Shown: piece after piece, positions 15,480 through 43,320 of the stretch
Position numbering within the stretch: position 1 is the first letter of the stretch
Layout of the letters: the number at the start of each line of letters is the position of its first letter
Virus record (IMG/VR): IMGVR_UViG_3300037484_001420
Span: 5,811-69,810 of that record
Length of the DNA: 64,000 nucleotides
Origin: a virus
Taxonomy: Duplodnaviria; Caudoviricetes
Strand: one strand, 5' to 3'
Program-made: the position numbers and the translations under genes
Notes under the pieces: generated by a model
Databases searched by the model: none
Seen by the model: only the letters and a program-made list of their open reading frames with translations
Told to the model about the DNA's origin: nothing

Positions 15480-16306
15480 AAACTGGCCGGGCTTGGGAAG
15501 CGGTATTGGCGGAGCGGGCTTGTGCGAAAGGCCAGAAGCGCGCGGGATACACGCCGGGCTCGAATCGACTGCTTATCGCGTTGACCTACTGGAGCGGCGA
15601 CGCTGGCGCGGTGATGCGCCTAGCAAAGTTTCTTGCCGACCTGGAGCCGCAGCACACCGAGCGCGCGGATTTGCTATTTTCCCATCGGTTCGATTGCTCG
15701 CCTCCTCCGGGACCCGTGGTAAAATACGTTTCCCGCAAGTTTAACACCTTCATTCATAAATCTGACAAGTGCCCGGTTGGATGGCCGCAGGGGTGCAATG
15801 GGACTTGGGCGTCAACGATGCGCTGGGTAACTAAGAGCATCGAGTCCAAAGCATGTCCGGCGTATAAGGCGGTGTTTTGCTGTGAGGGTGACGGGGGGCC
15901 TTGTGTCCAAAATTGGGTTGAGGAAATGTCGACGGAATGGGACAAAGCGGACGCGAAGAAGCCGACCTATCAGGCCGGGCCTCTCGTGCAGCTTCCCGCG
16001 ACGCATATCAACGGCAACTGTTTGCTGTCGTGTGACCCGGCGTTCCTGGCGTGGGTGAATAACACCTCGGCTCGTTTGCATATGACCGGCGGGTGGGATT
16101 ACGTGCTTGCTCAGCAGTTCAGAAAGTGGGGCTGGGCGAACATCGACCGAATGCGGAGCTACTACAACTCGGCGCATTTCACCGTTGAACAATATATGCA
16201 GATGCGGACCGAGCGCCTTATCTGGCTGCACGGCGATAAAAGTGGATGTCTCGTTGACTACGGTCGCACCTGGATGCTGGAAGGACAAAGTGGACTTAAA
16301 TCGTAA
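15476..16306 (+). CDS. Putative glycosyltransferase-like protein
   Basis: 276 aa from ATG 15476; GWPQGCN, FCCEGDG (DxD-like), HINGNCL; context between a GT2 gene and fcl. Confidence 0.55.
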   Translation: MKTGRAWEAVLAERACAKGQKRAGYTPGSNRLLIALTYWSGDAGAVMRLAKFLADLEPQHTERADLLFSHRFDCSPPPGPVVKYVSRKFNTFIHKSDKCPVGWPQGCNGTWASTMRWVTKSIESKACPAYKAVFCCEGDGGPCVQNWVEEMSTEWDKADAKKPTYQAGPLVQLPATHINGNCLLSCDPAFLAWVNNTSARLHMTGGWDYVLAQQFRKWGWANIDRMRSYYNSAHFTVEQYMQMRTERLIWLHGDKSGCLVDYGRTWMLEGQSGLKS

Positions 16307-17219
16307 AATTTTAGTTACTGGAAGCGCGGGCTTGGTGGGCCGCGCGATTGTGCGGGAGCTTTACAGACGCGGCTTCGAGCAAATCGTGACGACGTCCAGC
16401 ACCGTGTATGACCTGCGGGACCAGTATCACACGGACCGGCTTTTTCGGGAGCACCGGCCGGATTACGTGTTTCACTGCGCCGCGAAGGTCGGCGGGATTG
16501 TGGGGCACCTGCATCAGGCGATTGATATGTTTCGGGATAATATCCTGATGGAGTTGAACGTCATCACGAACGCCCACAAGTGGGGGGTGGAAAAGCTGCT
16601 CTTTCTCGGCAGCGCGTGCGCGTATCCGAAGCACGCGGCGACTCCAGTGAAAGAAGAGTCTTTGCTGACGGGAGCGCTGGAGCCCTCGAACGAACTTTAC
16701 GCCCTCGCGAAGATTAGTGGCATCAAGTTATGCGATGCGTTTCGGACGGCGTTCAATTCAAATTTTATCTCGACGATGCCCACGAATATGTATGGGCCTG
16801 GGGACAACTACCATCCTCGGTTCTCGCACGTGATACCGGGCATGATTCGAAAGTTCCATGAGGCGTTTGTCGCGGGGGATGAGAGTGTAGTTTTATGGGG
16901 GACCGGCAAACCGATTCGGGACTTTCTCTACAGCGATGACGCCGCGAGCGCCTTTGTCACGCTGATGGAGCGCTGGAACCAGCCCGGCCCGGTGAACGTG
17001 TGTAGCGGTGCCCCCGTGGAACTGTGGCAACTCGCCGACGCGATTCGCGAGGTTACTTTTTTCAAGGGAGAGATTATTTGGGACTCCGCGTATCCGGACG
17101 GCACGCCGGACCGAACGATGGACGCGAGTAAGATTAAGGGGCTAGGGTGGGAACCCAAAGTTCCGCTTGCAACCGGCCTTGAAATCGCGTATGCGGATTT
17201 TCTTCGACGTTGCTTATGA
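16290..17219 (+). CDS. fcl: GDP-L-fucose synthase
   Basis: GTG start; [69 protein letters not shown]. Confidence 0.93.
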
Positions 17220-18175
17220 AAACAGCGCTAATCACAGGAATCACGGGGCAGGACGGTGCTTACTTAGCGCGGCTGCTTCTGGAGAAAGACTACCGAGTCT
17301 TCGGTGTGGTCCGAAGGGCGAGCACCCCGAACACGGAGCGTATTCAGGAGTTGGTCGACGGAGAAAAAATCCATCTTCGCTACGCGGATTTGACAGACGA
17401 GTCCTCGTTGATTCGGGTGTTGAACGAGGCGCTGCCGGATGAGGTTTACAACCTGGGCGCGCAGAGCCACGTTCGAATTAGCTTCGACATCCCGGTTTAC
17501 ACGGCGCAGGCGACGGGGATGTCGTCTCTGACGCTTCTGGAAGCTATTCGAAATTCTAATTGTCTGCCACGCTTCTATCAAGCAAGTTCGTCAGAAATGT
17601 TCGGAAGCGCGCCTCCGCCACAGAGCGAGAAAACTTTGTTCCAGCCGCGAAGCCCTTACGCGTGCGCGAAGGTGTTTGCCTACTACACGACAATAAACTA
17701 TCGCGAGGCTTACGGCATGCACGCCAGCAACGGCATACTCTACAACCATGAGTCGCCGATTCGCGGTTTGAACTTTGTGACGCGCAAAATAACGCTCGCG
17801 ATTGCGAACATTCTGAAGGGGCTTCAGAGTTGCGTGAGCCTTGGCAACCTGGAGGCGAAGCGGGACTGGGGCCACGCGCGCGATTACGTTGACGCGATGT
17901 GGCGGATGCTTCAGCAGGACAAGCCGGATGACTATGTGATTGCTACCGGCGAGATGCACTCCGTTCGGGAGTTTGCGGAGGAAGCTTTTTCTTGCGCTGG
18001 GCTTGATTGGAAGGATTTCGTGCGAATTGATTCAAGATTTTTCCGGCCTTCTGAGGTGGATGCGCTTCAGGGCGACGCTTCGAAGGCGGCGGAGAAGCTG
18101 GGGTGGAAACCGAAAACCACGTTTAAACAGCTAGTGAGGGAGATGGTCGACGCGGACATAGCGGGGGTCAAATGA
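17216..18175 (+). CDS. gmd: GDP-mannose 4,6-dehydratase
   Basis: [81 protein letters not shown]. Confidence 0.97.
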
Positions 18176-32990: not shown

Positions 32991-34724
32991 ATGGCGTTCG
33001 AAATTCAGCTTGCAAGACAGTCGACTCCGATTAATGTGCCGGTCGGGCCGCTGGTGACTCCGGCCGAGCCCATCGTAGACTCGAACACTGCCGAGTCGGT
33101 GTTGCGGAGTATTAGCGAGGGGCTTTTCACTGGCGGGAAACTCGTCGACGAATTTGGGAAACTTGGGCAGGCCGAGCGTGCGGCGAAACTACAAGCGGCG
33201 AGAGAGGTTATCGACCCGAACGCTATTGCGGCCAGGGCAGAAGCCCTAAAGGCGGCACGGGCGAAGACTCTTTTGGAGGCGGGAATGGCCACGGAAGCGC
33301 TGCCAAATGTAGCACTCAGGGCGGCGACTGAGCGCGCGAAACTGGAGCGCGAAAAAGCGGATGTCTGGCGCGGGGACGCGTTGAAGTCCTACGAAGAGTC
33401 GGGCCGAGCCCCGGTGTATTTCCAGCAGGAGGACGGAACCGAGTCCGACGAGGTGGACGTAGAGCAAACGGCGGCTCTCGGGGCGCACATGAAATCGTCT
33501 AAGAGCCAGATGACCGAAGCGGCGCAGATGCTCAAAGGGGAGCAGCAAAAAGTTTGGGATTCCGGATTGCAGCAAGAGGTGGTGCGCTACGTTAACGTGA
33601 TGGGGCAGGACGTGTCTCCCGGGTCGGACGCTCATAAGTTTTGGACCAAGCAATTTCAGGACGGCTATAAGAAATACTACAATCCGCCGAAGGTGAAGCC
33701 TCGCGCGAAAGGTGGCAAAGTGGAGACTGCCAAGGAAGAGCGGAACGCGCAACTTGCGGCGGCTGAATCAGCGACGACTGCGGGCTTGGTTGCCCCCAAG
33801 GCTATCAGCGGCCCGACTTTTGCGCCCACGCCGGGCACTGAATACGCCGCAGCCGCACAGTCTTTGACTTTTCCTGGCGTGGCATCCGCACGTAGCGTGC
33901 TCACCGGTCCGGCGGGAGGTTTGTCCGAGGCGCAGGTCGCGCAAATGACGGACCAGCAAGTTGCCGATGCGTGGCGCGGATTGCAGGTAGCTGCGCCGGG
34001 CACTGTCGGCCGGGTGATGATTGCTCCTGCGTTGCCACAGCCGCAACCGTTAGTGACTCCGCAAGAGACGGCACCGGTCGCGCAGTTTCCTGGAGCTTTT
34101 CCAGCCGGACCGAAAGAGCCCTCGAAATATGTTGAGGCAGTAGCGAAGCAGCCCGGCTATACGGACTGGGCTGAGAAAATCGTGCCGATGCAGAATTTTG
34201 CGACGGCTGCGAAGCGGATTCAAGAGGGACCAACCACTGCCGCCGAGAAAGGCCCGCTTGGGCTGGCGAACATGCGGCAAAAGGATTTGGCGCTAATTCA
34301 ATCGCTCCGGCAGTTGTCGGTCCAGACGCAAGCGGCGACTGGGCGAGCGCTTCCCGAGATGCAGACGAAGGCGATTGAAGACCAGATGTCGCTATTTGAG
34401 AAGCTGGGGGACTGGAAACAGACGGTCACCGGCACCGGCACTCTTTCGCCGGGCACTCGTGAGCGGATGATAAAATTCGGAAACGACTTGATTCGCGCGC
34501 GCGAGCTAACGGTGTTGCCCGCGCTGCAATGGGCCGTCCAGGATTCTGGACTCGACGCTGACCAGATTTGGGGACCTAATAGTTTTCAGAAGAAACTCTT
34601 GGAAGGCGGCTCGATGGCCGTTCCCGAGGTGCCGATAGGCCATGGTGGTAGCGGTGTCGCTCACGAGGCCAACGGAGAAATGCGCTTGCCAAGCGGACGT
34701 CGAATCGTATATCCTGGAAGATAA
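32991..34724 (+). CDS. Internal virion (ejection) protein
   Basis: 577 aa, helical and Ala-rich; between the pilot and the giant gene. Confidence 0.65.
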   Translation: MAFEIQLARQSTPINVPVGPLVTPAEPIVDSNTAESVLRSISEGLFTGGKLVDEFGKLGQAERAAKLQAAREVIDPNAIAARAEALKAARAKTLLEAGMATEALPNVALRAATERAKLEREKADVWRGDALKSYEESGRAPVYFQQEDGTESDEVDVEQTAALGAHMKSSKSQMTEAAQMLKGEQQKVWDSGLQQEVVRYVNVMGQDVSPGSDAHKFWTKQFQDGYKKYYNPPKVKPRAKGGKVETAKEERNAQLAAAESATTAGLVAPKAISGPTFAPTPGTEYAAAAQSLTFPGVASARSVLTGPAGGLSEAQVAQMTDQQVADAWRGLQVAAPGTVGRVMIAPALPQPQPLVTPQETAPVAQFPGAFPAGPKEPSKYVEAVAKQPGYTDWAEKIVPMQNFATAAKRIQEGPTTAAEKGPLGLANMRQKDLALIQSLRQLSVQTQAATGRALPEMQTKAIEDQMSLFEKLGDWKQTVTGTGTLSPGTRERMIKFGNDLIRARELTVLPALQWAVQDSGLDADQIWGPNSFQKKLLEGGSMAVPEVPIGHGGSGVAHEANGEMRLPSGRRIVYPGR

Positions 34725-34731
34725 TAATTTC

Positions 34732-37700
34732 ATGTCTGATTTATTTGCGACGCCGGTAACTGAGGCGGCACCCCCGAAGTTTTACACTCCGGAGGGCGTT
34801 GAACTAACCTCCCCCGCTCCCGTTGCACCAGTAGAGGAGAAACCTCCCGGGCAACTAATGTTTGGCCCGGCCCCGAAGTTTTTCGACGCGGCGGGCAAAG
34901 AAGTCCCACACGACTCACAAGAAGCCGCCAGCATGCGCGAAGAGGCCGGGCTGATAGACCCGCTTTTTGATTTGCCGGTGGACGACCTTGCCGCTTTGGC
35001 GACGGAGACGAAGGGCACCTTCAATCTGAAGGAAATTTTCAATTCCCGGCCGGAGGTGCACGCAAACCCCGCCGTTGTGCAGAGAGTCGCCGACGCCTAC
35101 ACGAAGTATGCGGATTCGACGAAGCTGCTTTCACTTCCCTCCACAGTGGGGGAGTGGAAACAGGCCGCTGGCGGTCTTTGGGACATGGCCAAAGGCTATG
35201 CGAAGACCTTTGCGGTCGGTCTCCCGGCTGCCGTGGTGGCAAATGTGCCTGGAGTCCCTCGGGAATTGCAGATGGATGCCGAGAAACTGGAAGCCGAAAT
35301 TATATCCGGCAACCGGGCGGCGCTTCAGGGGCTCGGAAATCTCGCGCTTGGGGCCGGTGAGAAGCTCGCACGGGCTACCGGACTGGCGCCAAAGCTGAAT
35401 GAGCTAAACGCGCAGCAACGAGTTGAGTTTTTCCAGAAAGCTTTGGAAGAGCAGAGGCAGCTTCAGAAAATTTCCGAAGGCAAAGACGAGGGTTTTCTAT
35501 CGCTCGACAAGGGCGAGATGGCGAAACTCGCGGAAGCGGGCCGCACTTTAGAGCCGGAGCAGGTCGCGCAATACGCGGCAGGCTCCCCGTTGGCGTTTAA
35601 ACTGTTCGGCGCGGGATTCGGTGGTGCCGGGAAAGTGGTTGGCGCCGGTGCGCGTGCCGTTGCGCCGAATTTAACGGCTCGGATGGTGCCCGTGCTCTCC
35701 GACATTGCCGCCAAGACCGGCGGGCGAGTTGTGGAGCGAGGTGCGCAAGCGGCAGAGCTTTCCGTAGCAGGAACGCAAAAAGTCGCCCCCGTGGGGGGCG
35801 CAGTCGCGGGCGGATTGGGGCTAACGAGTGTGGTTCCGCATGCTGGTGGCGGCATCATCGGCGCGGGCCTGGGCTTAACGGCAGGCAAAGCGCTGGCCAA
35901 AGGGCTCCAGCCTGTGCGGGGCGCGCTCCAAACGGCTGCCCAGGTGGGCCGCGAAATCGCGGGCAAGGAAGCAATCGCGCTTCCCGTGGCCCAACTCGGC
36001 CGGGACGTTTTAGAAGCGGTTCCGATGGCGGGCGCGGAGATTGGCAAGGGCCTCGCCTTTGACGCGGCTCTGTCTGCCGCCGCTGAAACTCCCGAGGAGC
36101 AGCAAGGGGTCGGTATTGGCGCGCTCTTTGGCCTGGGTGGCGCCGCCTTGCGGAGTGGAATGCACGTAGTGAGCGGCCAGCTAATTGCGCCGCGCGCTTA
36201 CGGGGCTGCCGCAAGAATCAGCTCTAACAAATTTTTCCCACAACTCGATGCGGTGCATGATGCCGTCTTCAACGCGGCCAACGAAGGGGTTAAAACGCGT
36301 GTGAACGCGATTCGGGGCTTTGCTCGCCTCATAAACCCTGAGATGGAAGTTATTTTCGCCGGTCCGAGACCTGCGGAAGGACAGCCGGACCCATATTTCA
36401 ACGCGCTGATATCTCTCGGCATGCAGCAGGAGCAAGCAAAATTTTACGCAGACCAAGCGGGCTTTCACTCACCTCGGTTTCGCGACGCAAAGGGAGTAGA
36501 CCGGCAGTTAATCGTATTTCGTGATGTGGAGTCGGCTCCTCACGAGGTGAAGCACGCGATGGATGACGTGATGGGCGCCTCTGCTGCTCGCACTCGTTGG
36601 TTGAACATGCGGAGGTATTACACGCCGCAGGAGTGGGATGCACTCGGTCGCCAGTATGCCTCTAAGCTATTCTCTGGTGAGCGGAGGTGGGACCCAAGCG
36701 CAGAGTCTTGGCAGTCCTACGTTGCGGACGTCTCCGGATGGGGTCGCGCGGAGGCCGCAGAGCAGGTCGCACGGCAGGAGTTTTTGCAAGGTGGCGAAGC
36801 CGAGGGACCAATTTCGGCGGACCAAATGCGGACCGCTTTAGAGTCCGTGCAAGACAACTGGCGCGACGTGCTCGGCGACGAAGGCGTTCGGCGGGTTGGC
36901 GAGCTTTTCAACGGCGCAGAAATCTCCGCCGAAAGCTGGGATGCGTTGTTTAAACACGCTGGCCCCGCAATGGCGGAACCGACCGGCCCCATCGCGAAAT
37001 CTGCTCAGGTGTTGGGCACCGCCATGGAGCTTATCGGGATTGACCCACTCACGGGTCGCACCTCAGAGGGCGGAGTGCCCCTAAGACGCGGAGCCGTCGA
37101 AGCGGGGAGACGCGAGACCGCCGAATCAACGAAAGGCAAATCCGCAGCACCGACGGCACCCATAGTGACGCCTCGGGTTGCTCCTGGAGCATCAACGGTA
37201 GCGAAGACGCCAACTGAAAGGGACCGCGAGGCCGACCAGCGAATCGTGCAGAACGCGCCGGACACGACTTTAGAAGGTGCCGACCAGTCCGTTCGAGAGA
37301 TGACCGGCACCCTAGCAGAAGCGGCAGCGACGGGGCAAGGCGTGGTCATAGAGTATCGCTCCGCCCCTGGTGAGGGACCCGCTGCCGCAACCGAACTAGG
37401 CGGCATTACTCAATCAGTATCTCGACCGGTCCGGCGCCGGATTATCGAAGCCGCACGTAATTTGCCCGAAGAGGCGCGCAACATGATTTCGAAGGTGTTC
37501 GCACCTTTCAAACTCCGGCAGTCTCGGAAGGGGCTGCAAGCGGGGGGCTGGGCACCCCAGGTATTTGCGGCGAACGCGCAGAAGCTCGCCGAGTTTGTCG
37601 CAACCAGTTCCACGCCCTTTCGTGCCGACCTTTTCGGGGCGGAGGGGGTATACCCAGTTGACCGGTCCGCAAAAACTTTCACCGTCGACGGGTGGAGAAA

Positions 37701-40700
37701 GTTATTAGACGACGCGCAGACTTTTTCCAAGAACCAAGCCGCTGGTTTCACCGGCAGTGGGGAGCCTTTGGTAGTCCCCAAAGAGCCCGGCTATTATGCG
37801 CCGCCGACCCGTCCCGAACTATCTGTGAGCGGCTTAGACCAGCCCCGGGCCGACGTTACTAATTCGCTTTTCGGGCTGAAACGTCAATCAACCGGTATCG
37901 TTGCCAAGGAGACCCAGATTCCGCTGAACCTCATGGGCCAGCGAGTGTCAGAGGCCACAATCCCCGGCCGAGTGCGCGACGTAGAAGGTCCGATGTTTGG
38001 TGCGGCTGGTGCAAAATCGCTGGAGCGTGCGCAAAAGCTCGGCATCGAGGGGGAGCAGGTTCGGGAAACGAATCCGTTCCGCGATGAACTTGAAGCGCAG
38101 ATTAACCCGCCCTCTTTTATCGAGGTGTTCCAATGGCTGAACCTGGAGCACATGAAAAAAGTAGAGCTTGCTCCGGAGCAGCCGCAGATTACCGGAAACA
38201 CTTTGACGCTGACCGCTGGATTTTCCCCGGGCACGGAATGGAATTCCCGGCTTCGAACTGCAAAGGATGAGGAGGCGACGGCCAAGGGCGCGTTGTCCGA
38301 AGCGCTACAGAACCGTGCAGACGAAATGCGCGCCAGCCTGCGCCGTCGCGGCAAGGAAGACGATTATAATTACGAGCTTGCTAGCATGCCCGCCGTGCAG
38401 GGCCGCAGCCAGCTACCAAAAGATTTTCAAAAAGAAGAAACGTTCTCGCGTTTGACCGAGGACGAGCGCACCCTTTTGAGCGCATGGGAAACGGCGCACG
38501 AGGCGCGAAACCGGGTTGAGGCCGAACGGCCGGAAGGAGCCCTTACTGATTTCGAGGCGCGCCAAGCCGAGGAGAGATACCACGCAAGCCAAGAAGCCCG
38601 CATGCGGAATTTCGGAGCGCTGGGTGTCCAATATAAGCCGAGCCCGCATCCGGACGCCATCGAAAGCGCGGCTACTCGGGACGATAAGACCGGCAAAATC
38701 TACACCGGGGTGATGCACTTCGAGAGCAATTTGAAATATCTCGAAGACCATCCGGAACTGCGCAACGGCCGGTCAATGGACGACCCGGTGACGCCGTTGC
38801 AGGCGTGGAACAAACTGCCGGACACCACGGATGGCTTTGTCGACAAGAAGGGAAACTTCCTCACGCGAAAGGAAGCGGAGGCGCGGGCGCTGGAGATTAA
38901 CCAGATTAAAGAACCGCAAGTAGGGATGGGCGGACTTGAGTCGGACTATTTACGTTCGGCCGCTCAGTTCAAACCTGATGTTAGCTGGGTGGAGTCGACA
39001 ATTCAAGATTTAGCCGAGGGTGGAAAGACAAAACTAATCCGAGCCATAAGGCGACATCTGCCCGAGACGGTGACCCCGGAATTGCTTGCAGCAGTCCGCG
39101 ACGAGGTCAAACGCCTAGCGGAGGCTCCGGCGGCTCAAATCAAAGAGTATCGAGAAGCGTTAGACCTTCCCCCTACTCCAAAACGGGATTATAATGCGGA
39201 GTGGGCGACAGGAGTTGAGCAGGCGCTTGGCAAAGATACGCCGCCAAAAAACGCCGCAAAAGGAGTTAACTGGCTAAAAACAACGATTCAGGATTACATC
39301 GAAAATGCAAGCTACCGTGGCGGCAATGAAGAGGAGGTTGCTGACGCGGTAAAACGACATTTGCCTGAGCGCATGACGCCGGAATTTGTTGCCGCCTTGC
39401 GTGCCGAGGCCAAACGGTTATCAGAGGCGGGCGAGCCCGAACGCCAGGTAGAAACGCACTTAGACGCGACCAACGACGGCTATGGTTGGCACGATTATAA
39501 TAATCCAAATGCGGAGTGGCTGGCGGGAGTTGAACTCGCGCTGACGGGGGCTACCGAGCAAAAACCAGCGGCACCTCTGCGAGTGACCTTAGACGTAGAG
39601 CCAGATGAAAACACTTTCCGGGGTTTTGGTTGGATTAGCCCTTCCGGCGACATTGTTCCTGCAAAATCCGCTTACGACCATTTTCCTGCTTTAGCGGCCG
39701 TTTCAGAGAGTTTCTCCAAAGCGTTCCAACAGGCCAAAGAAGCCGGTAAAGAAGGCTGGCAATCCGATTTGGCAGAACAGCTATACGCACAAGGCTGGGT
39801 GCGCTTGGGGAAATCCGCAGATGGCACGGGGTTGGGGGCCGAGGGCAGGGCCAATAGCTTACAGTATTTGCGCGGTCCGATTGAGGACGCGAAAATAATC
39901 GCGGGCTTAACCGGTGCCCGCACTGACCTTTTTGTTCGTGGCAAAAAAATCGCCCCGGCTGCGCAGTTCAAGCCGCGCGAGGACGAACTACTGGACCGCG
40001 CCAAAGAGGTGTTGCGCACCGGCAAAGGAAACGCGGACGAGATTCGCACTCTAATGAACCGCGTTGAAGAGCGGCCGGAGGACTTGGCTCGCCAGGAAGC
40101 TCTCGGCAACGCAATTGCTCAGTTCAAGCCGGAAAAGACTCAAGAGCAGTTGGACAAGGAGTGGATGGACTCAGTCGACTTCTCGAAATATGAAGTCAAA
40201 CCAAAAACCGCACAAACGCCGGAGATGCTTTTCGAAGCGAAGCGGAAATCAGCCAAAATCAAGCAGGAAGCTCTGCCGGACTCCGCCGCCGGTGAGGAAA
40301 TCAATATCGTTCATCTGAGCGACACGCCCGGCCTGAGAGTAGTAGACCCGGCGAAGATGGGCGCTGGGAAAGCGACACCGCGCGATTTGCGTGGGATGAA
40401 CAAGTCGTTTTGGTTTGTGGGGGAAAGTCCACTCGGCCAAGACGTGAATATTTTCGGTGGAGAAGGCAAGCACGCCTACGGCACGACGATTCGAGGCGAG
40501 CGGATTTACGACCTGCGGGGCGACAAAGACGACGTGCTTGGGTATTTTTCGGAGCCCAATCGAGGGCTTGCGGACCAAAGTCTGATAAAGCAGGGATACG
40601 CGGGCGTAATGACCGATACGCCGGACGGTCGGCAAGTGGTGATGCTTTTCAAAGGCGCCAAGGTCGCGCCGATTGAGTTTGCTGGTGGCGAGAAAGCGCC

Positions 40701-43320
40701 GAAGGGGTTGCGCGCAGAGATGGTGCAATTCGCTCCGGCGGATGACCCGAACCCGCGCAAAATCAAGGCCGCGATTGTCTGGGACCCCAGGACTGGGAAA
40801 CGCTGGGAAGGCGCGATGCACTTTCTCGCGCTGCAAAAAGCGACCGCTGATGGTGTAAAGCCGATGGAACTTGGCCAGCTTACGCAAGGGTTCATCGACG
40901 TCGCTGGAAACAAGCTCACGCGCGAAGAGGCCTTCGTGCGAGCCCAGGAATTGGAGCAGCTCAAACCCGGGGAGGTGTCCAAAAGCACCGGAACTTTGGT
41001 TTCCGAGGAAACGCAATTCAAACCGCGAGACCTTGTAACTCCGGACATAGAGAAGCGGCTGTCAGAATCAATTGTGCGTTTTGAGGACGGAACTCTTAAA
41101 CCCGTTTTTCATGGAACCGCAAGCATTCCTTTTGCGGGCGAAACGTTGAGGACAGAGGGTTTCCAAGCACACTTCGGGGGTCCCGGTTCGGCAGCCCAGC
41201 GTGTGCTCGGGGTGGAGTCTAACCGGACGCCAAAAGCGCGGGAGGGAGTGGAGAATCTCAGGACCGTTCCCGTATTCCTAGATATAAAGAATCCTCTTCG
41301 AACCGAAGACGCGGGTAATTGGGCTGAGAATGCAACCGCCGTTGCCCGCGTGATTCGCGATGCACTACCGGTGGGCTCCGAAGCCCGTCGCTGGTTTCGG
41401 GAAGATGCTATTTCAGGAAAAGTAAATGATGCACTTGCTGACCTGGAAGCGAGGATGGGGGTTGATAAGGCTTGGACGGCTGCCAACCGTGAGGTATTAC
41501 GGGACATGCAGTATGACCTAATGAACGAGGGTTACGACGGCATCGTCTACAAAAACACATTCGAAGGTGAAGAGAAAGCGCGAATCGCCACGAATATCGA
41601 GGACCCCAACTGGACTACAGGGGGGCTGCACTACCCGGGGAAAGAGGACTACGCCGGAGATGACAGCTACATTGCGTTTGAACCGAGTCAGGTGTTCAAT
41701 GCCGTCACTAAAGAAAATATCGCCACTATCCAATTCAAACCCGCGAAGCTGGAAGATTTTTCCGACAAGAAAAAACTCTCAGAAGCGCTGAAGTCTGACG
41801 GCTGGGCAATCCTCACCTGGAACCAGGAAGCGCTTGGTGCCGCCACTGCGAAAGAAAATCTGGCGGCGAATGACCGGCTGGCGAAACGGTTGACGGACGC
41901 GGGCTATGAATTCCAGGAAATCAAGGGGTCCTACGAGGGCGTAGACCAGGGCAAGAATTTTCTGGTCACCGGCATCTCGCCGGAAGAAGCGCTAGCATTG
42001 GGCCAGGAGGGCAAGCAGGAGTCCGTGATTGTGCCGGACGGTTTACTTTACTCGGACCGAACGCTTTACCCGATTGACCCGTCGAAAAACACAGTTGGCA
42101 AGAACGCAAAAACACAGCCGGGATGGTCGCAAGTGCCCGGTGGCCCGGCGTTCAGCCTGGGGCTGGATTTTTCGGAGAAGATATCTTACGAGCCAAAAGC
42201 CGCCGGGCAAGCTCAGCCCGCGCTGTTCGAAGGCTTCAATGAGACCCCGGAGCGCAAAGTTTTGTCCACCTCGGAACTGGCAACCATGGGCGTGAAAGCT
42301 CTCCGGGATTATTACCCGGAAGCTACTATCCCGAATCGCGTTCGCAATCGGAAGGGGGAGCCAGTAGACCCCCAGATGCCGTCCGACCACAAGAATTCTC
42401 CGCTCTACAAGTCCGCGAAGGACGAAGCGGAAGCGGTGCAGCTTTTCGCGGACCAGCTAGTCCGGGAGCATGAGAAGTGGAAAGACAATCCGACTTACCA
42501 GTCCGGCCTGAAGTGGTATTCGGAGTTCACGCCGCTGCTGAAAAAGCATTTCGGCAAAGACGCGCCAATCATGGCGGAGCTACTTTCCGCGACCAGCCCG
42601 AACACAACGCCGGACATCAACTTCAAATTCGCTCTGGACGCAATCCTTGGCTACAAAGCCGGGCGCTATGACCGGCACGTCAAAGGCTTCTTGGACGGCT
42701 TGCAGAAGGTTGAGGATGGGTCCTGGAAAGATTACATGACGCAAGCCCGCGAAGCGGGAAAGACGGTTGCGCCTTCTGATACAGTCCCGGCGTTCCTGGA
42801 GCAGTGGATTGCCGATAATAATTTGCTGCCGCTTCAGAGCAACGGGAAGAAGTTCGGGATGCACTCGGTCCCCGTGCTGAAGGTGCTGGCGAGAAAATGG
42901 CTGGCGTTGAACACCGGCCCGAAGACGGCTAACTTCATTAAGAACCTCGTGGGCACTGGGGAAGAGGCCACGGTTGACGTTTGGGCGGACAGAACCCTCC
43001 GCCGGATTGGCTACCAAGAGCGCGGCCGCTGGAGAATCACCACGTTGAACTCGACGGGAATTCCGGACGCCGATTTCTATTTCGGCCAGAAGGTTTTTCG
43101 TGCCGCCGCCGACAAGCTCGGCATCAAACCGAGTGCTCTCCAGGGCGGGATGTGGTTCGCCGAGAAGCAGCTTTGGGCCGACCGAAAATGGGGCCGCCTG
43201 GACCTGGGAGATTTTCGCTCTGAAATCAAGAAACTGAAAGCAACGAAAGCAACGCTGGAGGCGCGTGCCAAAGAGGCGCAGCCGGAGTTGTTGCTTGCAC
43301 CCCGAAAGACCAATGACTGA
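34732..43320 (+). CDS. Giant polyvalent internal virion protein (2862 aa): ejection region, zincin motif, two ADP-ribosyltransferase-like modules, DUF3293-like and HhH-like domains
   Basis: HEVKH at 36541; VFHGT...VPVFLDIKNPL...GYDGIVY..YIAFEPSQV (ART-PolyVal-like); modules bounded by the Q[FY][KA]P motif. Confidence 0.85.
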   Translation: MSDLFATPVTEAAPPKFYTPEGVELTSPAPVAPVEEKPPGQLMFGPAPKFFDAAGKEVPHDSQEAASMREEAGLIDPLFDLPVDDLAALATETKGTFNLKEIFNSRPEVHANPAVVQRVADAYTKYADSTKLLSLPSTVGEWKQAAGGLWDMAKGYAKTFAVGLPAAVVANVPGVPRELQMDAEKLEAEIISGNRAALQGLGNLALGAGEKLARATGLAPKLNELNAQQRVEFFQKALEEQRQLQKISEGKDEGFLSLDKGEMAKLAEAGRTLEPEQVAQYAAGSPLAFKLFGAGFGGAGKVVGAGARAVAPNLTARMVPVLSDIAAKTGGRVVERGAQAAELSVAGTQKVAPVGGAVAGGLGLTSVVPHAGGGIIGAGLGLTAGKALAKGLQPVRGALQTAAQVGREIAGKEAIALPVAQLGRDVLEAVPMAGAEIGKGLAFDAALSAAAETPEEQQGVGIGALFGLGGAALRSGMHVVSGQLIAPRAYGAAARISSNKFFPQLDAVHDAVFNAANEGVKTRVNAIRGFARLINPEMEVIFAGPRPAEGQPDPYFNALISLGMQQEQAKFYADQAGFHSPRFRDAKGVDRQLIVFRDVESAPHEVKHAMDDVMGASAARTRWLNMRRYYTPQEWDALGRQYASKLFSGERRWDPSAESWQSYVADVSGWGRAEAAEQVARQEFLQGGEAEGPISADQMRTALESVQDNWRDVLGDEGVRRVGELFNGAEISAESWDALFKHAGPAMAEPTGPIAKSAQVLGTAMELIGIDPLTGRTSEGGVPLRRGAVEAGRRETAESTKGKSAAPTAPIVTPRVAPGASTVAKTPTERDREADQRIVQNAPDTTLEGADQSVREMTGTLAEAAATGQGVVIEYRSAPGEGPAAATELGGITQSVSRPVRRRIIEAARNLPEEARNMISKVFAPFKLRQSRKGLQAGGWAPQVFAANAQKLAEFVATSSTPFRADLFGAEGVYPVDRSAKTFTVDGWRKLLDDAQTFSKNQAAGFTGSGEPLVVPKEPGYYAPPTRPELSVSGLDQPRADVTNSLFGLKRQSTGIVAKETQIPLNLMGQRVSEATIPGRVRDVEGPMFGAAGAKSLERAQKLGIEGEQVRETNPFRDELEAQINPPSFIEVFQWLNLEHMKKVELAPEQPQITGNTLTLTAGFSPGTEWNSRLRTAKDEEATAKGALSEALQNRADEMRASLRRRGKEDDYNYELASMPAVQGRSQLPKDFQKEETFSRLTEDERTLLSAWETAHEARNRVEAERPEGALTDFEARQAEERYHASQEARMRNFGALGVQYKPSPHPDAIESAATRDDKTGKIYTGVMHFESNLKYLEDHPELRNGRSMDDPVTPLQAWNKLPDTTDGFVDKKGNFLTRKEAEARALEINQIKEPQVGMGGLESDYLRSAAQFKPDVSWVESTIQDLAEGGKTKLIRAIRRHLPETVTPELLAAVRDEVKRLAEAPAAQIKEYREALDLPPTPKRDYNAEWATGVEQALGKDTPPKNAAKGVNWLKTTIQDYIENASYRGGNEEEVADAVKRHLPERMTPEFVAALRAEAKRLSEAGEPERQVETHLDATNDGYGWHDYNNPNAEWLAGVELALTGATEQKPAAPLRVTLDVEPDENTFRGFGWISPSGDIVPAKSAYDHFPALAAVSESFSKAFQQAKEAGKEGWQSDLAEQLYAQGWVRLGKSADGTGLGAEGRANSLQYLRGPIEDAKIIAGLTGARTDLFVRGKKIAPAAQFKPREDELLDRAKEVLRTGKGNADEIRTLMNRVEERPEDLARQEALGNAIAQFKPEKTQEQLDKEWMDSVDFSKYEVKPKTAQTPEMLFEAKRKSAKIKQEALPDSAAGEEINIVHLSDTPGLRVVDPAKMGAGKATPRDLRGMNKSFWFVGESPLGQDVNIFGGEGKHAYGTTIRGERIYDLRGDKDDVLGYFSEPNRGLADQSLIKQGYAGVMTDTPDGRQVVMLFKGAKVAPIEFAGGEKAPKGLRAEMVQFAPADDPNPRKIKAAIVWDPRTGKRWEGAMHFLALQKATADGVKPMELGQLTQGFIDVAGNKLTREEAFVRAQELEQLKPGEVSKSTGTLVSEETQFKPRDLVTPDIEKRLSESIVRFEDGTLKPVFHGTASIPFAGETLRTEGFQAHFGGPGSAAQRVLGVESNRTPKAREGVENLRTVPVFLDIKNPLRTEDAGNWAENATAVARVIRDALPVGSEARRWFREDAISGKVNDALADLEARMGVDKAWTAANREVLRDMQYDLMNEGYDGIVYKNTFEGEEKARIATNIEDPNWTTGGLHYPGKEDYAGDDSYIAFEPSQVFNAVTKENIATIQFKPAKLEDFSDKKKLSEALKSDGWAILTWNQEALGAATAKENLAANDRLAKRLTDAGYEFQEIKGSYEGVDQGKNFLVTGISPEEALALGQEGKQESVIVPDGLLYSDRTLYPIDPSKNTVGKNAKTQPGWSQVPGGPAFSLGLDFSEKISYEPKAAGQAQPALFEGFNETPERKVLSTSELATMGVKALRDYYPEATIPNRVRNRKGEPVDPQMPSDHKNSPLYKSAKDEAEAVQLFADQLVREHEKWKDNPTYQSGLKWYSEFTPLLKKHFGKDAPIMAELLSATSPNTTPDINFKFALDAILGYKAGRYDRHVKGFLDGLQKVEDGSWKDYMTQAREAGKTVAPSDTVPAFLEQWIADNNLLPLQSNGKKFGMHSVPVLKVLARKWLALNTGPKTANFIKNLVGTGEEATVDVWADRTLRRIGYQERGRWRITTLNSTGIPDADFYFGQKVFRAAADKLGIKPSALQGGMWFAEKQLWADRKWGRLDLGDFRSEIKKLKATKATLEARAKEAQPELLLAPRKTND

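Follow-up and report, generated by a model that had tools for sequence, protein, structure and literature searches.

What is a short peptide doing five times over in a single giant phage protein? The question is raised by a stretch of 64,000 nucleotides (hereafter the window), which comprises bases 5811-69810 of IMGVR_UViG_3300037484_001420, a 69,810-bp IMG/VR virus record rated 96% complete. Its giant gene (34732-43320 on the plus strand, the strand of every feature located below), delineated from the open reading frame (ORF) list, the translation and synteny across 33 IMG/VR loci, encodes 2862 residues and carries the peptide QFKP in its C-terminal half. We find that QFKP is one form of a motif that marks the joints between exchangeable modules in a whole family of giant proteins, and that this motif may be the cleavage code of a polyprotein.

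The five QFKP copies of the giant protein begin at residues 1412 (38965-38976), 1745 (39964-39975), 1797 (40120-40131), 2095 (41014-41025) and 2334 (41731-41742). They are accompanied by a single QYKP at residue 1300 (38629-38640) and a single QFAP at residue 1999 (40726-40737). A reading of this DNA from the sequence alone (the sequence-only reading) had listed these seven sites, GFSP and SYEP as two degenerate copies and a metallopeptidase-like HEVKH; all nine sites and HEVKH were confirmed at the positions it gave. Its claim that five QFKP lie far above chance was also confirmed, as 0.018 copies are expected from the composition of the protein, and among 20,000 shuffles of the protein no more than two copies ever appeared, with exactly two in 3 shuffles. 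Furthermore, QFKP is the sole tetrapeptide with more than three copies in the giant protein. A six-frame search of the 64-kb window found Q[FY]KP in no other frame or gene, and the other window ORFs (14,476 residues) contain the relaxed motif pattern six times, never as QFKP. No published description of this or any other junction motif in such proteins was found in the searchable literature; to that extent the motif is, as supposed, previously undescribed.

A family search with the first 1166 residues of the giant protein as query (E<=1e-3, cluster representatives) yielded 187 representative relatives, mostly of 2000-3400 residues, and the motif pattern extends to 106 or more giant proteins from uncultured phages. 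Below the 50% clustering level the family probably exceeds 1000 proteins. A tblastn search with the whole protein as query over 50,697 phage records picked up only its DUF3293 module, in two cyanophages, and turned up no cultured relative. The long family members share a layout consisting of an N-terminal core of ~1150 residues, an [AS]-G-F-x-P junction, a mosaic middle and a C-terminal DUF7178 domain. The junction is present in 106 of the 118 long members, and DUF7178 in all 17 members scanned with Pfam; the middles of members carry DUF3293, GNAT, ART-PolyVal, histidine phosphatase (His_Phos_1), radical SAM, NAS/methyltransferase and LRV families. A short subgroup of complete proteins of ~1200-1550 residues (relatives P0027, P0036, P0063, P0075, P0082, P0131 and P0138) consists of the core and junction followed by a brief tail that ends in a conserved ...G(T)GSAG...DPNYKPPFP..., with no DUF7178 and no further junction sites save two QFSP in P0036. 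The peptide GFSP, previously taken for a degenerate copy of the motif, proved to be the window's form of the most conserved site of the family. It belongs to the junction AGFSP (residues 1162-1166, 38215-38229; GFSP itself from residue 1163, nucleotide 38218), which ends the core family-wide as [AS]GFxP and whose A1162, G1163, F1164 and P1166 are invariant in family alignment A4. All N-terminal high-scoring segment pairs (HSPs) against relatives stop at residues 1166-1185.

Across the 106 long members the motif is concentrated in the part of the chain that follows the junction. The pattern [QKR]F[^G]P occurs 2.79 times per 1000 residues after the junction and 0.22 times before it, which is 12.7-fold denser, and the median spacing of its sites, 156 residues, equals a typical domain size. 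The simpler pattern F.P is found 777 times after the junction against 350 expected (2.2-fold) and 329 times in the cores against 269 expected, while the reversed pattern P.F stays at expectation in the C-terminal parts (1.04-fold). The commonest forms are QFQP (110), QFSP (55), QFAP (32), KFQP (29) and QFKP (19). A small residue usually precedes the Q, and Lys or Arg follows the P before acidic residues, giving a joint-linker consensus of small-[Q/K/R]-F-x-P-[K/R] plus acidic residues, in which x denotes the variable third position of the motif.

The sites coincide with the places where homology between relatives breaks. In the window protein each site falls on a breakpoint defined by HSP edges, and the breakpoints lie at residues 1166-1185, 1294-1308, 1413-1415, 1796, 1999-2000, 2098/2099, 2336-2337 and 2480-2492. 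HSP starts cluster at residues 1294-1308 around QYKP, and 18 HSPs end exactly at P1415, the last residue of the first QFKP. At the next two sites, an HSP of relative P0072 ends at residue 1745 and collinear homology with P0003 begins at residue 1796. HSPs start at residues 1999-2000 at QFAP; at the QFKP of residue 2095, the HSPs of the upstream module end at residue 2098 and those of the downstream ADP-ribosyltransferase (ART) module begin at residue 2099; and at the last QFKP, those of DUF3293 begin at residues 2336-2337. Modules of the window protein recur whole in other family members, from just past one motif to the next, at different positions in the chain. In the family at large, an all-against-all BLAST comparison of the C-terminal parts showed that a motif is the place where 13.8% of distinct HSPs start and 11.2% end. 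When sites are placed at random, they catch 2.8% +/- 0.3% of HSP edges, about five times fewer. The proposal that the motif follows the borders of modules whose content differs between relatives is thus borne out by both HSP breakpoints and module recurrence.

The SYEP peptide (residue 2485, 42184-42195) is a doubtful degenerate site. HSPs end and start around it at residues 2480-2492, and relative P0004 has QFKP at that very place, but in many relatives DUF3293 and DUF7178 are joined with no motif in between.

The motif is further predicted to lie in flexible linkers. AlphaFold2 models were made for residues 470-1185 (716 residues, 40-sequence alignment, mean predicted local distance difference test (pLDDT) 86.7), which form two domains, and for residues 1985-2862 (mean pLDDT 72), in which the ART and Y16D-like modules rest on a shallow alignment. 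At the junction, pLDDT collapses directly after A-G-F and stays below 50 from residue 1165. The QFAP of residue 1999 is predicted as coil at the N-edge of the second Y16D-like module, the QFKP of residue 2095 falls inside a stretch with pLDDT<50 (residues 2080-2103), and that of residue 2334 lies at the end of another (residues 2328-2335). SYEP sits at the C-edge of DUF3293, with a disordered linker next to it at residues 2490-2506. Wherever the model is good, the motif is in, or at the edge of, a low-confidence linker, in agreement with the earlier expectation that it would avoid folded domains. In relatives the motif stands 0-14 residues upstream of the first conserved DUF3293 residue with no fixed register, and DUF3293 modules of proteins outside the family lack it, so the motif belongs to the chain and not to the fold of the module.

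The variable position x covaries within a protein. The x of the junction equals that of downstream sites in 55.6% of comparisons, against 26.7% +/- 3.2% (maximum 37.4%) in 5000 permutations in which junctions were shuffled among proteins. For members whose junction x is other than Q, the match is 39.7% against 11.4% +/- 3.7% permuted, and two sites of the same protein agree in x 52% of the time, where 22% would be expected. This covariation is suggestive of one shared reader of the sites per lineage. It is not proof of one, because the permutation leaves in module exchange among close relatives.

A protease signature is found in the core of the same chain. The zincin-like domain (residues ~494-805, 36211-37146) is modelled with pLDDT mostly above 90 and contains HEVKH, an HExxH motif (H604, E605 and H608; residues 604-608, 36541-36555), in which H604 and H608 are conserved in 106/106 family members and E605 in 102/106, Asp replacing it in the remaining 4. 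The helix E730-x-x-A-E734 ('AEISAE', 36919-36933), ~126 residues past HExxH, is the candidate source of the third zinc ligand (E730 in 105/106, A733 in 101/106 and E734 in 95/106), and the family consensus around the signature reads APHExxH ... ARExxAENFDA. In P0004, P0016, P0088 and P0162 the domain has HDxxH instead of HExxH, yet 1-5 junction sites are kept. Structure comparison of the 716-residue model with VIA gave M34 zincins as the only protease-like fold matches of this region, namely PPEP-2 (6fpc_A; Z 6.4, root-mean-square deviation (rmsd) 3.8, 150 aligned), the lethal factor-like domain of Certhrax (Z 6.3), the catalytic domain of anthrax lethal factor (1yqy_A; Z 5.7, 161 aligned) and PPEP-3 (Z 5.6). 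The sequence-only reading had proposed a zincin from HEVKH and the EISAE helix; the two elements stand, as they are conserved in the family, while the fold assignment is left with M34 matches of modest Z.

Joint consensus, flexible linkers, within-protein agreement of x and a protease signature in the chain together point to a polyprotein with defined cleavage sites. We propose that the joint motifs are protease cut sites that release the modules, most likely by the chain's own zincin, and we place the chance of this explanation a little short of even. The protein consists of a fixed core, the [AS]-G-F-x-P junction, a variable string of autonomous cargo modules and a fixed DUF7178 end, and the cargo here comprises two T4-Y16D-like domains, an ART-PolyVal-like ADP-ribosyltransferase, an S-adenosylmethionine (SAM)-lyase-like DUF3293 and unassigned modules. 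[Q/K]-F-x-P would serve as the recognition and cleavage signal that frees these modules as separate proteins, in the style of viral polyproteins. The candidate enzyme would be the built-in lethal-factor/PPEP-like zinc metallopeptidase, which leads because the scanned ORFs contain no other peptidase that could be recognised, because its catalytic residues are conserved and because Iyer et al. provide a precedent. By analogy with M34 zincins the scissile bond would be Q|F, because anthrax lethal factor takes a hydrophobic residue at P1' and PPEPs prefer Pro at P3'. Indeed, PPEP clefts read P3-P3' and have the preference for Pro at P3' in common (PMC12828418). Cleavage itself, the identity of the enzyme and the scissile bond are what we infer here. 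The protein would be packaged in the virion and ejected into the host, where the modules would be released; packaging and ejection we infer from the gene position and from the precedents of N4 virion RNA polymerase and phi24B gp47.

Several observations weigh against this proposal. The zincin fold match is modest, as Z 5.6-6.4 falls short of the value of 8 below which VIA advises caution, and none of the sequence methods ties the domain to a peptidase family (Pfam for the window protein and 17 relatives; PDB profiles). PDB-sequence profile searches with the whole core and with the zincin region alone yielded nothing beyond designed helical proteins, ClpX and RelA, all at E>0.04, and Foldseek found no significant PDB match for the N-terminal model. 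A mutual-information scan of 106 aligned cores against x class revealed no clear specificity determinant in the zincin domain; besides the junction residue, only high-entropy columns scored. The covariation of x could also come from module exchange mainly among close relatives sharing a linker dialect. The short cargo-less members retain an intact HExxH with only, or nearly only, the junction site, so that the peptidase may have another main job. N4 virion RNA polymerase, ArdC and TraC1 likewise carry zincin domains yet travel unprocessed (cited in PMC5512222). A complex prediction of the zincin domain (residues 484-814) with the linker of residues 1730-1765 scored 0.00 against a mark of 0.32 and speaks neither for nor against cleavage.

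Among the rival explanations, the one that survives best holds that the motif is not cut at all. It would be a docking or handling signal for a common partner (the capsid interior, the portal, a chaperone or the protein's own WYL/SH3-like barrel), or a stiff proline hinge for threading through the tail. The location of the motif in linkers is equally natural here, the covariation of x would suit any shared reader, and N4 virion RNA polymerase is ejected uncut. A possible internal partner is at hand as well, for the second conserved domain of the core (residues ~825-1164, 37204-38223; ~840-1157 in the model) contains an Sm/SH3-like barrel, which VIA matched on the AlphaFold2 model to the WYL/Sm-like barrels of PafBC (6sj9_B; Z 11.0, 92 aligned) and to the WYL domains of CapW and BrxR (Z ~10, 83 aligned). 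The barrel of these three proteins senses nucleic-acid ligands. On the other hand, the variable spacing and the strict Q/K-F-x-P after small residues resemble protease subsites more than a hinge, and the kinds of module found here also exist free-standing (SAM lyase structures; Y16D-like clusters of 82-95 residues), which fits release. Moreover, no partner is known. We regard docking or a hinge as unlikely, if well worth keeping in mind.

The second rival accepts the cut sites and assigns them to another enzyme, an unrecognised head-maturation or other phage protease or a host protease, with the zincin acting as an effector or as a tool for cell-wall passage or ejection. The retention of the zincin by cargo-less members and the missing specificity determinant in its domain are both easily accommodated in this way, and the gp47 metallopeptidase of phi24B has a proposed peptidoglycan role, put forward by its authors. 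Furthermore, known packaged phage proteins are usually cut by a prohead protease of the T4 gp21, phiKZ or SPN3US types (PMC10052503). In the window, about 30 of the ~40 larger ORFs were scanned with Pfam and PHROGs and no other peptidase was recognised, and no head-maturation protease was recognised either in the scanned ORFs from terminase to capsid or in the other ORFs scanned. The 452-residue gene between portal and capsid gave a weak scaffold lead in an atlas look-up and resembles a scaffold rather than a protease. Given how divergent the genome is, the absence of a recognised second protease counts for little. A conserved host enzyme is harder to reconcile with the data, as x is lineage-specific. 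A separate enzyme is, in our estimate, improbable as a whole, and deserves to be weighed seriously.

A stronger version of the proposed self-cleavage can be formulated, in which a lineage-specific code would operate. Cleavage of Q|F-x-P by the zincin would wait until ejection, and the S2' pocket of the enzyme would co-evolve with x. A single injected chain would in this way supply a mixture of anti-defence enzymes, activated by the cut, and these effectors, starting with Phe, would be cleared by the host N-end rule as a timer. An N-terminal Phe is a primary ClpS/ClpAP N-degron in bacteria. This elaborate version is distinctly improbable.

The sequence-only reading had also considered the motif as a recombination joint, and the same thought covers a gene-conversion by-product that permits in-frame swaps of modules. 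Homology blocks do break at the motif, and module order varies between relatives. However, in 31 genes with 49 QFxP sites, the Q, F and P codons of the sites match gene-wide usage, and codon identity among the sites within a gene reaches 0.498, where 0.472 would be expected. Because site codon usage equals the gene background, the constraint is on the peptide and not on the DNA, and selection, as judged from these sequences, is acting on the motif at the protein level. The window's own sites likewise use mixed codons (CAG/CAA, AAA/AAG and CCG/CCT/CCC) within unrelated flanking sequences and have only ~8 nucleotides in common. A DNA recombination joint was rejected on these codon data and is very improbable. 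Chance or a compositional artefact, for which nothing speaks beyond the short length of the motif, is refuted by the shuffles (0/20,000 reach three copies) and by replication of the pattern in more than 100 relatives, and we give it practically no credence.

The modules parted by the sites are diverse, and the claim of a polyvalent-type chain of effector-like modules is upheld. Module 1 (residues 1167-1299, 38230-38628) is charged and probably helical as judged from its sequence, and no homologue was found in the family comparisons. Module 2 (38641-38964) is a T4 Y16D-like domain of the PF26092/phrog_839 type, with a precomputed Pfam PF26092 match and an atlas lead of 0.88 to T4_Y16D clusters; 63 family members carry this module, many of them in multiple copies, and it is matched end to end. 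Module 3 (residues 1416-1744, 38977-39963) has an internal duplicated helical segment plus a further domain and only partial homologues, in P0047 over module residues 210-319 and in P0072 over 210-330 (up to residues 1734 and 1745 of the protein). Module 4 (residues 1749-1796, 39976-40119) is a short helical piece of 48 residues, from its sequence, for which no homologue was found, and module 5 (residues 1801-1998, 40132-40725) recurs in 12 family members with no Pfam match. Module 6 (40738-41013) is the second Y16D-like domain (phrog_839, E 3.8e-9; pLDDT 85-95), a paralogue of module 2 to which it cross-matches via P0003, and is carried by 52 family members. Module 7 (41026-41730) is an ART-PolyVal-like ADP-ribosyltransferase (Pfam PF18760, E 5.8e-5), whose score of 24.3 bits is under the 31.2 cut-off; ART-PolyVal is found in 4/17 family members scanned, with a best E of 2.5e-11. 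This module is poorly modelled because its alignment is shallow.

Module 8 (41743-42183) is DUF3293 (Pfam PF11697, E 5.3e-5). Its model matches the SAM hydrolase/lyase 7ock_L in VIA (Z 10.8, rmsd 2.9, 121/152 aligned) and the T3 SAM lyase 8bb1_E in Foldseek (probability 1.00, E 0.016), which suggests a SAM-lyase-like fold and hence a possible SAM-degrading anti-restriction role. A DUF3293 module is also the only part in common with P0013, an unrelated 3604-residue polyvalent metagenome protein, in which it sits exactly between two copies (residues 1894 and 2068) of that protein's own repeated delimiter, L-ESRA (five copies against 0.14 expected). In other lineages, different junction peptides seem to be in use. 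The conserved C-terminal domain of the window protein, DUF7178 (42196-43317; Pfam PF23802, E 6.3e-9), has a model whose best VIA match is the Ogg of Tm1821 (3n0u_A; Z 9.4, 185 aligned), followed by ROS1, EndoIII, OGG1, AlkA and MutY at Z 6-7.7. An HhH-GPD DNA-glycosylase-like fold is a lead from this model.

At the other end of the chain, the N-terminal region (residues 1-470, 34732-36141) is Gly/Ala-rich and conserved in the family consensus, and a hydropathy scan found in it a single weakly hydrophobic, glycine-zipper-like stretch at residues 350-369. The most likely start codon is the ATG at 34732 (MSDLF...), within ORF 34642-43320, which yields the 2862 residues. Neither Pfam polyvalent-protein peptidase models nor LPD or MPTase-PolyVal models matched the window protein or 17 relatives, and its structural neighbours in BFVD are proteins named ART-PolyVal-like or LPD-containing (E 2e-4 to 1e-2). 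The window protein fits the polyvalent concept of Iyer et al., and its family lies outside the Pfam polyvalent peptidase and LPD models.

The giant gene is the final large gene of a rightward structural block that opens with terminase. Its upstream neighbours are conserved genes of 672, 584, 274, 301 and 577 residues, and a conserved 218-residue gene lies downstream; the placement is the same in 33 IMG/VR loci, many on 60-75-kb contigs. Two nucleotide-sugar epimerase/dehydratase-type genes (16107-18175; phrog_540, E 1e-68 and 2e-82) lie among the head genes, flanked by the scaffold-like gene on one side and the capsid gene on the other.

Polyvalent proteins occur widely in phages and plasmids, and the idea that zincins cut them has stood since 2017 with not one site defined. 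What is new relative to Iyer et al. is the junction motif at the joints, the polyvalent protein concept itself being already known. The family offers an exact candidate site at each joint and, within the same chain, a candidate enzyme that is conserved, which makes the processing hypothesis testable, and it provides a natural specificity series at x (Q, S, A, K, E, M, L and T). If cleavage is true, the module boundaries and cargo inventories of such proteins could be read straight from sequence, and a compact protease-and-site pair would become available for multi-enzyme delivery chains in phage engineering. Apart from processing, the models provide fold-level leads for two domain families, DUF3293 (SAM-lyase-like) and DUF7178 (HhH-GPD glycosylase-like).

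The closest known systems are the polyvalent proteins themselves, for which Iyer, Burroughs, Anand, de Souza and Aravind proposed zincin processing in 2017 and named no sites (PMC5512222). Like them, the protein described here is a giant multidomain phage chain that joins unrelated effector-type domains, ART-PolyVal included, to a zincin-like metallopeptidase. In contrast, it has a defined, lineage-variable junction peptide at the joints, whereas that paper names no cleavage or junction motif (PMC5512222). It also resembles N4 virion RNA polymerase gp50 and phi24B gp47, a 2811-residue virion polyvalent protein, in its size of about 3000 residues, its ~60-70-kb genome and its metallopeptidase domain. 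Those two are packaged in the head and ejected into the host, a behaviour that we also predict for the window protein; they have no sequence similarity to it, the DUF3293 module being its only match in the phage records, neither has been described with a repeated junction motif, and N4 virion RNA polymerase is reported to be unprocessed.

With the M34 zincins, lethal factor and PPEP-1/2/3, the candidate enzyme has in common the best structural matches and an HExxH with a downstream Glu, and the PPEP preference for Pro at P3' would fit Q|F-x-P. It differs from them in the Z of just 5.6-6.4, the lack of sequence relation, the ~126 residues between HExxH and the Glu helix, and a predicted P1' of Phe, not Pro. 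T4 internal proteins and Alt, together with the head proteins of jumbo phages, offer a further parallel, as those effectors enter the capsid, are trimmed there at short consensus sites (LxE / AxE) and are injected with the DNA. Here the motif is another one, no prohead protease was recognised in the window ORFs scanned, and the sites part many modules of one chain rather than remove a targeting peptide. Viral polyproteins are processed at a short consensus by a protease that they encode themselves, as by picornavirus 3C at Q|G, potyvirus NIa and coronavirus Mpro. The giant protein is like them in its short consensus at each joint, accessible linkers, lineage variation and a candidate protease in the same chain. 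Unlike these RNA-virus replication polyproteins with their cysteine or serine proteases, it is a cargo protein of a double-stranded DNA phage, with a putative zincin and predicted cleavage.

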